NCBI RefSeq assembly: GCF_006345805.1
Contig: NW_021835548.1
Location: 1-39,567, forward strand
Origin: Octopus sinensis
Taxonomy: Eukaryota
Direction of reading: 5' to 3'
DNA: 39,567 nucleotides
Part shown: positions 4,602 to 11,417 of the stretch, one piece after another
Position numbering within the stretch: position 1 is the first letter of the stretch
How the letters are laid out: every line of letters begins with the position of its first letter
Program-made: the position numbers and the translations under genes
Notes under the pieces: model-generated
Seen by the model: only the letters and a program-made list of their open reading frames with translations
What the model was told of the DNA's origin: nothing
Databases searched by the model: none

Positions 4602-4741
4602 TCAAGAATGAGAGGATCTTCCGGAAGCTGTTTCCTGTCGATGTACTGGGCAGAATTGCTTCGGGTCAATCCCGAACGGAAACCAGGGACGATAAACCTG
4701 TACACATTTGAAAGAAACAGGAACCAACGAACTACTAAGAC

Positions 4742-4772
<31 letters not shown>

Positions 4773-5101
4773 GTCGTTGTCGTCGTCGTCATCATCATCA
4801 ACTTTGTCTTCATTGTGATCGCCTGTTTTAGATGACAGCCAATCAGGAAGCGTTTTACAATTCCGAATTGGCAAGTTGTGTCGAAATGTGTTTCCTTTTT
4901 TCTTCGATTTTGCTCGTCGATTTTGAAACCAAATACGAATCTGTTTGTCACTAAGGCCAGTTCGTTTGACCAGTTTTTTCCGGGTTTCGCCTGAACAAAA
5001 CCGTTCCCTATTGTAAGAGGCTTCCAGTAATTCCAGTTGAAAGGGTAAATACGGTTGCCGAAACGGTTTCGCTTGATCTCTTTGTGGTATCTCCTTGGAA
5101 T
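4602..5101 (-). CDS. Homeobox gene, terminal exon with complete homeodomain (5072-4893) and poly-Asp tract
   Basis: Acceptor ccttccttatcatttgctctttttgcag|. Phase-1 translation gives AKPFRQPYLPFQLELLEASYNRERFCSGETRKKLVKRTGLSDKQIRIWFQNRRAKSKKKG, with R5, Y8, Q12, L13, L16, E17, R31, L34, L40, W48, F49, Q50, N51, R53. It continues into track ORF 4602-4874 and ends at TGA 4604-4602. Confidence 0.92.
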
Positions 5102-5218
5102 CTGCAAAAAGAGCAAATGATAAGGAAGGTAAAGTTTAATAAAAATAGCACACACAATAAATATGCCAGAATTTTGTGGGGACGGGAAATCGATTACATC
5201 GACTTCACTGATCAACCA

Positions 5219-5781
5219 CGAGGGTGAGTCAAAAAGTAATGCCATTTTGTTTAGGTGAGGTATAATTACCAACACAGGTAAATGTATCATACATAAAAAT
5301 GAAGCTTATTATGAGTTTATTGTTTTTTTCCTTTTGGCAAGAAATCGACCGGAATGACACCTTGAGCATCCCAAAAGATGTCGCCATGATTTTTTCCAGC
5401 TGACTTTTGTGTCTTGAACTTTTTCGGTGGTGGTGACTTGGAGTGGCGCCATTCCATTGACTGCCTCTGTGATTCCGGTTCATAATGATGAACCCATGTT
5501 TCATCACCTGTTACGAGCCTTCGAAAGAAGGTGTTATCTCTTTGATTTTGTAATGAAGAAATGGCTCAAAGTACAGTTAACAGCATTTTACGGGACAGGG
5601 ATACATGCTCTCATTCGAAGGTGGAACGTTGCTATTGAGACAGACGGTGACTATGTTGAGAAGTAGGGATGTGATCGACAGTGGACCAGCTTCATTTTGA
5701 TGTATGACACATTTTGACACATGTTCCTGTGTCAGTAATTATACCTGTCCTAAACAAAATGGCATTACTTTTTGACTCACC
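5219..5781. mobile_element. Internally deleted and rearranged mariner element with both TIRs
   Basis: TIR ggtgagtcaaaaagtaatgccattttgtttagg / cctaaacaaaatggcattactttttgactcacc. The minus strand encodes TGDETWVHHYEPESQRQSMEW; the plus strand encodes the C-terminus RWNVAIETDGDYVEK*. Confidence 0.9.
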
Positions 5782-6407
5782 GGTTCGAGCGTGCCTGAAG
5801 CGTATTCGGTCTGATAATAACATAACAACTAATACTTATTTTACCAGCCCAGGAAGGCTGAAATGCAAAGTCATCTTCAGCGGTATTCGAACTCAGTATG
5901 TAAATAGACGAAAGAAATGTGTTTAAGCATTATATTCATGCTAACTCACTGTATTCTTCCAGTCCTAGCTATTCGCATTTAAACTATCTCCTATCATTAT
6001 AATCCATTGGAGTCTTGCAATAATTTAAACCCCCAAGCGAGACCATCAACAGTAAAAGAATCTTAACGAGTACCAGGAATTCTTTCCCGATATCGAAGAA
6101 GGAATCGATAATCGTGACAACGGTATTGTTTTGCTTTTCGTTTTTCCTATAGTCATTCATATAAGTCGATTTTCTACTGTATTGACCGTTTACCAGAATC
6201 GTCCGAAGTGAAAGAACTGGCAACGTGCTCATGATGTTGTTACCGGTCAAAAATCTTGTAACTACAGCTGGTTCGTCCTCGAATTCTTACTTGAAAGCAA
6301 GAGAAATGCTGTCACCTATGGCGTTAATGTCACCATATTTCAATCCAGGTTTCTATATAAATGTACTAACAACAGTTTAATGCTGTTTACAAAGCTATTT
6401 ACATTCA

Positions 6408-7010
6408 GGGGTGGCTGTGGGGTACGAAGTATTTTTCCTAATCACATGAATCCAGGTTTAGTCCCACTGCGTGTCGCCTTGAGCATGTGTCTTCTACTAT
6501 AGCCCCGGCCTGACTAAAGCCTTGTCAATGGATTTTGGGTAACGAAAACTAACTAACACACACACACACGCATACATTACGCACACACACAGACGCATAC
6601 ACGCACACACACAAGAGGACTCATACACACACACACATAAACACACACACACACGCAAGAGAACTTACATACATACACAAACACACACATTCACACAAGA
6701 GGACTCATATACGCACGTACAAACACACAAACACAAATGCATACACACACACTCGTGTGTGTGTGTGTGTGTGCATGCCATTGTGTTTGTGTTTAATCCC
6801 CTCATCCAGTATTGGTTTATTTACATTCCTGCAATTTAGCAGTTCACCAAAACAGAGCCAGATTGTATAACAGATTTTAAAATTATATATATATATAAAT
6901 TATGTTTCTATGTATGTATACGGGGGACCGCTTGCTTGACGAAGGCTCTCGAGGTGGTGCACCAGCATGGCCGAGAAGACTAATGACTGAAGCTCATAAC
7001 AGATAAAGGA
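6408..7010 (+). mobile_element. SINE family B, degenerate, with expanded internal CA microsatellite
   Basis: Head gtggctgtgg...gtcccactgcgtg and 3' part ggtggtgcaccagcatggcc...tgactgaa. Confidence 0.75.
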
Positions 7011-7072
7011 TCAAAAATTAAAGCAAAATCGAAGAAGCGGCAATATAAACAGATGCAGCGAAGTATATTTAC

Positions 7073-7267
7073 CCGAGGACGAAGCAGAGGCCGTCGTTAA
7101 TGGAGGGGATGGTGTTGTTCCTGCTGCAGCTGTTGAAGATAATGACGGCGGGGTGTTTGACGGGACTGGATTACTGCACAACGGTGTCGTCTTGTCCAAC
7201 CCACCCGTATGTAACTTATCAATATTTACATTCACACAGGTACGTCCATCCATTTCGTATTCTTCAT
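7073..7267 (-). CDS. Homeobox gene, coding exon 4 (DEEYEMDGRTCVN...TTASASSS; low-complexity S/T/P/A)
   Basis: Strong acceptor tttttttctctccttaacacag|, donor TCGG|gtaaat, 195 nt, phase 1/1, open frame (track ORF 7011-7253). Confidence 0.75.
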
Positions 7268-7388
7268 CTGTGTTAAGGAGAGAAAAAAGGGATAGCGTGA
7301 TGGCCCTTTATATTTCAAACATGGATGCAAATTGTGGGTAGGGGTCACAACAACAGTGGGGGTGCTGTTGATATAAGCAAGGTGGGGC

Positions 7389-7707
7389 CGTTGAAATTAA
7401 TTGAATATAGGCGCAGGCGTGGCTGTGTGGTAAGAAGTTTTCTTCCCAATCACATGGTTCCGGGTTCAGTCCTACTGCTTGTCCCTTGGGCAAATGTCTT
7501 TTATAACAGCCTCAGGCTGACCAGAGCGATGTGAGTGAATTTGGTGGTAAACGGACACTGAAAGAAACCTGATGTATGTGTGTGTGTAATTGTGTACTTG
7601 ACAACCAGTGTTAATGTATTTACACCCGTGATTCTTTTAACTAAAAATCCTTTAAGGCGCTGCCCCGCATGACCGCAATCATACATGCATATATATATAT
7701 ATATAAT

Positions 7708-7741
<34 letters not shown>

Positions 7742-7920
7742 CATATATACATACCTACATATATGCATATATGCATACAGACAGACACGGAGAGCTTCTT
7801 TTAGTTTCCGTCTACCAAATCCACTCTCAAATTATTGATCGTCCCGTCGATATAGTAGAAGACACTCGTGGCGCAAGGTGCCACGCAACAAACTTCTTAC
7901 TACACACATATGGTGCGCCT
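7389..7920. mobile_element. Inverted pair of SINE family B copies (+ at about 7410-7680, - at about 7790-7920)
   Basis: Plus copy ggcgcaggcgtggctgtgtggtaagaag...; minus copy ttagtttccgtctaccaaatccactc...gcgcct. Confidence 0.8.
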
Positions 7921-7964
7921 ATTTAAAGAAAAAAAAATCAAATAATTAATATAAATTCATTTAC

Positions 7965-10186: not shown

Positions 10187-10256
<70 letters not shown>

Positions 10257-10257
<1 letters not shown>

Positions 10258-10472
10258 GTGAAGGTGCTGAAGGGTTTCTGGCTTTAAATGTGTAGCGAAA
10301 GGCCTGATTAGAGGCCCACCTTTCTAAGTTCTCTTACAAGGATTAGAAAAACTGAAGGACCGCTAAACATAAGTGTGCGAATGTGAGAGAGTAATATGTT
10401 GAACAAAATTATGGTTAACTGACACTCCTCTGTTTATTTTTAACCAAAGCGAGGACCTTTTCACCACCCCTC

Positions 10473-10473
<1 letters not shown>
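10257..10473. mobile_element. Mariner-type MITE (about 215 bp)
   Basis: Imperfect TIRs ggtgctgaagggtttctggcttt / aaagcgaggaccttttcaccacccctc, TA flanks; homologous to 10871-11076. Confidence 0.7.
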
Positions 10474-10514
<41 letters not shown>

Positions 10515-10685
10515 TGAATAAATGGAGTTTAACGCAGGTGTAAATCAAATATTTTCACTTTCGACACGTTTCGAAAATTCCACTGATACTATTCAAAAGA
10601 ATAAATGGTATAAACAATGGTATTTTTTCCGTGTTAATTGTTAACAAGGTAAAAATACACTCAGCTATTTATATATATATAATAT

Positions 10686-10735
<50 letters not shown>

Positions 10736-10805
10736 TATACATACATACATACATACATACATACATACATACATACATACATGCATACATACATACATAG
10801 ATACA

Positions 10806-10836
<31 letters not shown>

Positions 10837-10870
10837 CATACATACATACATACATACATGCATACATACA

Positions 10871-11076
10871 CGAGGGGTGGTGAAAAGTTCCTGGCTATAA
10901 AGGTATCGAGAATGACCTGCTTCAATGCCCAAACTTTTCAGTTCTTTAACAAGGCTCAGAATAATTGAAGGACTGCAGAAAATAAGTGAGAGAGGAAAAT
11001 GTTGAATAAAATCACTGTTTACTCTTACTCCAGCTCTTATTTTTAACGAAGCCAGGACCTTTTCAGCACCCTCTCA
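10871..11076. mobile_element. Mariner-type MITE, second copy
   Basis: TIRs cgaggggtggtgaaaagttcctggct / agccaggaccttttcagcaccctctc. Confidence 0.8.
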
Positions 11077-11201
11077 TAGCCTCAGATAATGTAACAAGCA
11101 AATGAATAGATGCATTCTAGTATATACAGAGATAACTGAATAAAAATAATTTTTAAAATACACTATTCCGACAACATATTTGTCTTAATTATAATATATA
11201 C

Positions 11202-11273
11202 CTTATCGTTTGAGTTGGTTTCTGTTATATCAAAGTCGGCAAAAAGGATGGCATTACAAATTCGCCTTTTCAT
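11202..11273 (-). CDS. Homeobox gene, coding exon 1 (exon 11301-11202; ATG at 11273; MKRRICNAILFADFDITETNSNDK)
   Basis: Acceptor tatttgtag| at 11302/11301, in-frame TGA upstream of the ATG inside the exon, donor AAG|gtatat at 11202/11201. The 72 coding nt end in phase 0 and join exon 2 in frame. Confidence 0.55.
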
Positions 11274-11417
11274 TACACTTCTTTTTGCCTCTTTAATTCA
11301 TCTACAAATATTACAATAATTCTCTTAATGTTTTTATTCATTTTCACTCAATTATTGTCTATATATAACACAACCTATACAGGAACGTCTGCCCCACCTT
11401 TTCGCAATACATTCATA

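Follow-up and report, generated by a model that had tools for sequence, protein, structure and literature searches.

A divergent homeobox gene conserved among octopods in the genome of Octopus sinensis

Several animal lineages carry homeobox genes of their own. The ETCHbox genes of mammals (PMC8208926), the Shx genes of Lepidoptera (PMC4207634) and the spiralian TALE genes (PMC8524836) are described as fast-evolving duplicates, each confined to one lineage in which the parent gene was kept. The developmental genes of octopuses tend to be regarded as a standard invertebrate set. Here we describe a homeobox gene on the minus strand of a 39,567-nucleotide stretch of Octopus sinensis DNA (assembly GCF_006345805.1, contig NW_021835548.1, positions 1 to 39,567), referred to below as the window. 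In our view its product is probably a homeodomain protein, about 572 residues long and conserved between Octopus and Argonauta; the gene is likely intact, is predicted to specify a sequence-specific transcription factor and is likely an ANTP-class duplicate that diverged past the point at which its family can be recognised.

The homeodomain comprises 60 residues at 5072-4893 (minus strand), corresponding to positions 417-476 of the protein of about 572 residues, and its homeobox contains no intron. A preliminary description of this stretch, made from the letters alone, had placed the domain there with P7, Y8, P10, Y20, C26, V35 and A54, and every one of these residues is present; the PF00046 search that it had proposed gave an E value of 4.9e-16 (58.7 bits, the cut-off being 22.9). 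The match is ungapped over PF00046 positions 3-57, so that the three-residue insertion between helices 1 and 2 of TALE homeodomains is absent. The helix-3 motif occurs only once in the six-frame translation of the window, and the contig, which is unplaced, holds no second homeobox. The domain contains R5, I47, Q50, N51, R53 and A54 and 17 basic residues, and an AlphaFold model of it (from an alignment of three sequences) folds into three helices with a mean predicted local distance difference test score of 78.8, superposing on its five closest crystal structures, which are of HOXB13 and aristaless, with a root-mean-square deviation of 0.7-1.1 Å. When the full-length orthologs introduced below were scanned with Pfam, the homeodomain alone rose above the cut-offs.

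Searches with the last exon and exon 3 retrieved Octopus bimaculoides LOC128250792 (XP_052832682/3, 563 and 614 residues), Octopus vulgaris CAI9740537.1 (P0004, 390 residues, cut at both ends) and Argonauta hians GAB1610927.1 (662 residues). These proteins, all uncharacterised, share the same junction residues with the window gene. The features of the gene, all on the minus strand, are as follows.

16936-17061, minus strand: upstream exon with undefined 5′ boundary (88% over 42 columns, E 7e-21; GTAAGT donor at 16935).
11202-11301, minus strand: exon 1 of the preliminary description, a possible alternative exon (AG/GT only; no ortholog support).
9580-9838, minus strand: exon with the conserved ATG at 9808 and an acidic/aromatic N-terminal block (orthologs begin at the same Met).
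7965-8752, minus strand: large middle exon, exon 3 (tblastn with P0002 and P0004 gives two segments that lie in different frames).
8147-8229, minus strand: stretch of likely assembly errors, with one plus six missing bases and a substitution at 8162 (public contigs; ortholog proteins).
7073-7267, minus strand: Ser/Thr/Pro-rich exon, 28/65 residues (78% to O. bimaculoides, 94% to O. vulgaris).
4602-5101, minus strand: last coding exon, with a 10-residue linker, the homeodomain, a poly-Asp tract, QFCPVHR and the stop at 4604-4602 (ortholog match).
4893-5072, minus strand: homeobox of 60 codons without intron (PF00046, E 4.9e-16; three-helix model; row 57 of supplement 4 of PMC7566022).

The AG and GT borders that the preliminary description had claimed were found at 11301-11202, 9838-9580, 8752-7965 and 7267-7073, together with an AG ahead of 5101. 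Its five exons do not, however, form a single reading frame in the window sequence: the chain is 1814 nucleotides long, exon 3 has 788 nucleotides, and translation meets a stop at codon 291, the first of eight. The product of 604 residues that it gave is 1814 divided by three and ignores the frame break, while its product of 341 residues, obtained by leaving out exon 3, is indeed open but is absent from all five public models examined. The O. bimaculoides protein was placed on the window at 9808-9581, 8753-7966 (in two frames), 7277-7074 and 5105-4605. Public models support four of the five exons in O. bimaculoides and A. hians and three in O. vulgaris, and at all three phase-1 junctions the residues agree with the ortholog models (both of those from O. 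bimaculoides; that of Argonauta aligns). The start codon common to O. bimaculoides model X2 and Argonauta is the ATG at 9808, in exon 2, an exon which is 89% identical to O. bimaculoides over 76 residues and 59% identical to Argonauta over 44 columns. Further upstream, tblastn matched 17061-16936 to residues 1-41 of O. bimaculoides model X1 (P0005), with a phase-0 join to 9838 as in that model, so that a gene range of 4602 to 11301 is too short and the ortholog-matched first exon is not the one proposed. This exon is coding in P0005; since no in-frame ATG follows the nearest upstream stop here, it is likely 5′ untranslated region in the window. The 24-codon frame of 11202-11301 (ATG at 11273) matched none of the three ortholog N-termini with which it was compared.

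The frame of exon 3 is broken near 8222. Contigs from four public runs were compared with the window over 7920-8900 only. Those of run X1 (depth 34) and of run X11, from another study, each carry one additional base at 8222-8225 and six at 8147-8153, and the X1 contig differs otherwise by one letter across 7920-8746 (827 letters); the X12 contig spans 8479-8740 only and X2 gave no cover of exon 3. X11 and X12, presumed to be RNA runs, yielded contigs of low depth that stay within exon 3 and cross no junction, so they bear on neither expression nor splicing. With seven N placeholders added, exon 3 becomes 795 nucleotides long and the frame stays open for 572 codons from the ATG at 9808. The O. 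vulgaris and O. bimaculoides proteins continue past the break site and have two extra residues there, and the NCBI model on the same contig begins at 8124, just past the break. Since the X1 and X11 contigs both carry the seven bases, the frame reopens with them and the proteins of two species read through, the break is very likely an error of this assembly. We also observed that at 8510 the X11 and X12 contigs differ from the window and X1 by a letter that fits the Asn present in both the O. vulgaris and the O. bimaculoides protein, and that X11 has a cluster of additional differences at 8427-8481; these variants may be alleles, or may come from different species sharing one label.

Comparison with the orthologs showed that in O. 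bimaculoides 56/60 residues of the domain are identical (position 49 being Tyr), with 350/415 upstream and 78/87 downstream, and that the first 47 residues of the O. vulgaris homeodomain are identical (47/47). In Argonauta the domain retains 48/60 residues, against 124/406 (about 31%) upstream and 38/92 (about 41%) downstream. Judged on these alignments, the domain is constrained relative to its flanks, yet fast-evolving for a homeodomain: by eye, Post1a of octopus and Post1 of bivalves differ at 5/60 positions, and Post2 at 1/60. The 12/60 differences between Octopus and Argonauta, along with the lack of strong orthology to a named family in sequence searches, in Protein Data Bank (PDB) matches and in trees devoid of ordinary Cdx, Post1 and Post2, support the earlier proposal of a fast-evolving, lineage-restricted homeobox gene. 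Near the carboxy-terminus, QFCPVHR (about 4660-4630, minus strand) is kept in Octopus and Argonauta amid poorly conserved sequence; it brings to mind Cys-Pro heme-regulatory motifs.

A HMMER search of 1.84 billion representatives returned mostly multi-domain proteins among the best 150 of 3773 matches, and the close single-domain matches listed there were only O. vulgaris (98%) and Argonauta (69%), followed by two proteins from outside the octopods, P0050 (53%) and P0057 (52%). With a profile of three sequences the four octopod proteins scored 118-154 bits and the next match at most 68 (best 120 of 372). The searches show one gene per species and no array, and in a metagenome scan 1/166 candidate stretches passed, at 36% identity, and was not an ortholog. 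On sequence evidence, then, the gene is present in three Octopus species and an argonaut, an octopod range set against searches that did not extend to squid, cuttlefish or Nautilus genomes. The term cephalopod-specific, which had been offered as a possibility, is thus too wide: restriction to a lineage stands, the orthologs found being octopod only.

Trees were built from 357 unique domains, reduced by motif and redundancy to 124 and then to 47 in a first tree and 28 in a second; the latter omits P0050, P0057, the long branches and a number of divergent rows, and includes three added PRD-like rows. The reference set is biased, as it was drawn from search hits, contains no ordinary Cdx, Post1 or Post2 and bears family labels from crude motif rules. 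The three octopod sequences grouped with support of 94/88 in the 47-domain tree and 99/98 in the 28-domain tree, where their stem measured 1.24 changes per site.

The most serious rival explanation is that the gene belongs to an older orphan family, of coleoid, cephalopod or even spiralian extent, whose other members are absent from the searched collections or too diverged within them; we regard this as possible, if clearly less probable than an octopod-level duplicate. The squid, cuttlefish and Nautilus genomes lay outside the direct search and the domain evolves fast. Among the matches listed, no domain from outside the octopods is more similar than those of P0050 (34/60) and P0057 (33/60), and in the 47-domain tree the two fall in with the octopod clade (99/96). 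Their resemblance to the query is, however, what singled them out from 1.84 billion representatives in the first place; to Argonauta they are less similar (29/60 and 25/60), they show no similarity beyond the domain, and nematode sequences make up most of the ESM Atlas cluster nearest to P0050 (score 0.87; all Atlas matches stayed below 0.9 and serve as leads only). We therefore judged their likeness to be probably convergent, though unproven, and did not retain them as distant orthologs; their arm may resemble that of nematode pal-1. Exact short motifs of the gene were not found in the other mollusc sheets of the PMC7566022 supplement, which rules out near-identical copies only.

As to the family of the octopod duplicate, the exact domain is listed in supplement 4 of PMC7566022 (NW_021835548.1, 4893-5072) under the label "Octopus sinensis ANTP", with no family given. 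In the 56-row O. sinensis ANTP sheet of that supplement, Cdx, Gsx, Xlox, Post1a/b and Post2 form separate rows, and the same sheet holds a second unassigned ANTP gene, six odd Hox-type genes, HOXL-1 to -3, seven Nk2-like genes, a Dlx-like and an Evx-like gene. In all, the divergent additions on this sheet (sheet 13) number more than 12, mostly on unplaced scaffolds and some of them identical, perhaps as assembly duplicates. The homeobox section of the paper discusses neither the present gene nor these extra rows. The domain has Q50 and no Paired, LIM, POU, CUT or zinc finger domain accompanies it, features that are necessary but not sufficient for the ANTP class. By eye it shares 24/60 residues with each of the octopus rows Post1a, "Hox9-13" and "Hox6/8-like antp-like", 21/60 with Cdx and 18/60 with Post2, while the best single-domain PDB matches were HOXB13 (54 bits) and HOXA13 (53), then aristaless (50), ALX4, DLX5 and Msx1, all within 9 bits.

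R5, P7, Y8, Y20 and Q50 recall posterior Hox proteins, as do the Hox13 matches in PDB; unlike in these, W32 and the basic arm are missing and A54 stands where posterior Hox has I or M. No hexapeptide-type Trp (see PMC4901127) lies within the 75 residues before the domain, and an FPxWK string in exon 2 was rejected as a hexapeptide, being distant from the domain and missing in Argonauta. Given 18-24/60 identity to the octopus posterior genes and the absence of W32, both by eye, we did not count the gene among them. A likeness to Cdx/caudal is seen in an aromatic residue at position 4, R5, Y8, A54-K55 and 27/60 identity to a bivalve Cdx-like protein, with which the octopods grouped at 82/78 (an unstarred grouping) in the 47-domain tree; unlike Cdx, the protein has no Caudal_act domain. 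That it is the octopus Cdx itself was rejected, as an ordinary Cdx occurs on another scaffold and shares 21/60 residues by eye. In the bivalve Dreissena polymorpha, XP_052281087.1 (P0022), annotated as Lhx4-like, contains repeated divergent Cdx-like homeodomains, which suggests that Cdx duplicates diverge in other molluscs too.

Several results weigh against our reading of the gene. The exon chain is supported by splice signals and by public gene models, themselves predictions, rather than by an observed junction, and the X11 contig that confirms the missing bases has a depth of just 2.2. The O. vulgaris model exits the homeodomain after residue 47, a truncation that could be a modelling error, the likelier case, or real; the window has a GT within the Trp48-Phe49 codons (about 4934-4928), at the point where that model leaves the domain. 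The Cdx-like grouping was gone in the 28-domain tree, aristaless came close behind Hox13 among the PDB matches, and approximately unbiased (AU) tests rejected none of four placements (Cdx-like, p 0.40; posterior Hox, 0.28; Msx, 0.31; PRD-like, 0.29). Because the tests reject no placement, PRD-like included, the trees do not establish so much as the ANTP class. C26, Q6 and V35, common to three species and found in only 2, 6 and 7 of 354 other domains, respectively, are rare residues. Moreover, because the biased set lacks ordinary Cdx, Post1 and Post2, what we report is a failure of assignment, which does not prove that the family is new.

That the homeodomain is a divergent member of the PRD-like class, outside ANTP, would be an improbable alternative. 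Aristaless and ALX4 lie just under Hox13 in the PDB matches, A54 and K55 fit, the first ESM Atlas look-alikes were siamois (0.88) and Obox6 (0.85), as leads only, and the PRD-like grouping had the smallest likelihood cost (p-AU 0.29). The PRD-like class is characterised by Pro26 and an intron near codons 46-48, a pattern visible in oyster PRD genes. In contrast, the octopod domain has C26 and Q44-I45 in place of R44, and its homeobox is uninterrupted at codons 46-48 as elsewhere, so we did not assign it to the PRD-like genes; the authors of PMC7566022 had also placed the domain under ANTP in their supplement.

Slightly less probable still is a fast-evolved true ortholog of a named family missing from the catalogue (Msx, Msxlx, Emx, Lbx, Tlx, Nk6 or Hox2), none of which is named in the 56-row sheet. 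P7 and the end of helix 3 are Msx-like, Msx proteins prevail among the named lower profile matches (best 120 of 372) and the Msx grouping kept a p-AU of 0.31. Msx-like domains nevertheless reach at most 26/60 identity and differ in the upstream arm, for which reason we did not accept Msx membership, and their appearance among the matches is due to helix-3 words in common. Little weight attaches to the empty slots, because the assembly is incomplete (50% BUSCO, the benchmark of universal single-copy orthologs, in a table of PMC7566022) and Scr, Antp and Lox4, present in O. bimaculoides, are also missing from the sheet. Finally, the idea that the window copy is a recently broken allele or pseudogene with a real frameshift, to which the early stop and the truncated homeodomain of the O. 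vulgaris model might point, is largely refuted and very improbable, as the depth-34 contig (otherwise different in 1/827 letters) and a run of a second study hold the missing bases, two indels so close together (within 80 bases) are in keeping with long-read error and the remaining exons are intact.

Returning to an ANTP-class duplicate, we propose that the gene would have arisen when a HOXL gene was duplicated and one of the two copies then diverged rapidly. Whether the parent was a HOXL gene, either posterior Hox/Post1 or Cdx, is to us an even question; we lean towards it because HOXB13 and HOXA13 were the best single-domain PDB matches and because of the Cdx-like grouping in one tree, and ordinary posterior Hox/Post1 and Cdx copies exist separately in the same genome. 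Positions 47, 51 and 54 of homeodomains take part in DNA recognition, and proteins with Q50 and N51 bind TAAT-type cores, TTAT being preferred by posterior Hox and Cdx. Helix 3 of the octopod protein (I47, Q50, N51, R53, A54) would thus be expected to enter the major groove at a TAAT- or TTAT-type core, while R5 would reach the minor groove; position 50 is described as a key specificity residue and arm residue R5 as contacting the minor groove (PMC4901127). The protein would bind DNA in the nucleus, perhaps less strongly or with a shifted preference, because its N-terminal arm is altered, with Pro at position 3 and only two basic residues. Co-regulators could be recruited by the first 44 residues, which are conserved and acidic/aromatic, and by the Ser/Thr/Pro-rich middle; no EH1-like motif was noticed by eye, which makes activation more likely than Groucho-type repression as far as the sequence can suggest. 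By analogy with other lineage-restricted homeobox genes, our best guess, though one more likely wrong than right, would be a restricted role in the germ line or early embryo. The bolder scenario, of a new octopod-born family derived from a posterior Hox/ParaHox duplicate, under purifying selection, with changed arm and DNA preference, and part of an overlooked octopus homeobox expansion that patterns an octopod trait or the yolky non-spiral embryo, strikes us as unlikely.

The preliminary description had called the gene hidden, and this was mistaken. Its homeodomain is visible in the stop-to-stop open reading frame at 4602-5135, it has its row in PMC7566022, and NCBI holds a 284-residue "homeobox protein Hox-D11-like" [Octopus sinensis] (P0156) of identical sequence, which is the same gene. 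That model starts at 8124, past the frame break, and misses about half of the protein; its name implies a Hox11 orthology that, on sequence grounds, is unsupported. Main-text literature searches with accessions, short motifs and "Hox-D11-like" plus octopus gave no mention, most subscription papers and figure alignments being out of their scope. Short motifs had no match in the supplements of PMC9635652, PMC6118893 and PMC8848322, nor name or accession in those of PMC9712504 (a scanned PDF, figure alignments and external tables lay outside the search), and the passages covered of PMC9635652, PMC5103448, PMC10509229 and PMC13652810 do not name the gene. It is thus recorded in databases and one catalogue, and we found no characterisation in the literature searched, which does not extend to the O. 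bimaculoides genome paper, whose supplement may include it.

The window as a whole is AT-rich animal DNA dense in microsatellites. The only other clear gene seen is an uninterrupted 333-codon frame of a rhodopsin-family G-protein-coupled receptor at 29923-30924 (minus strand; 7tm_1, E 2.2e-34), usable as a synteny marker. A Tc1/mariner-type transposase fragment lies at 18898-19245 (plus strand; DDE_3, E 5.4e-9). By eye, a stretch of the last intron of the homeobox gene (about 5220-5780) resembles a mariner element in decay, and another at about 13054-13407 resembles the end of a long interspersed nuclear element; the pieces tested had no Pfam match. A non-repetitive frame of 100 codons in the same intron (5984-6286, minus strand) had neither an ortholog nor a Pfam match.

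A conserved homeobox gene of octopods that fits no family is a candidate lineage-specific regulator. The corrected model of about 572 residues, in place of 284, makes the gene experimentally testable and removes a false "Hox11" label. The weight of the finding is modest, as orphan homeobox genes are known in many animal lineages and this one already figured in a supplement. Set beside the octopod gene, the ETCHbox, Shx and spiralian TALE genes differ in that their parent and their expression are known; they resemble it as fast-evolving duplicates of a single lineage, a pattern into which the octopod gene would fit with ordinary posterior Hox and Cdx genes kept elsewhere in its genome.

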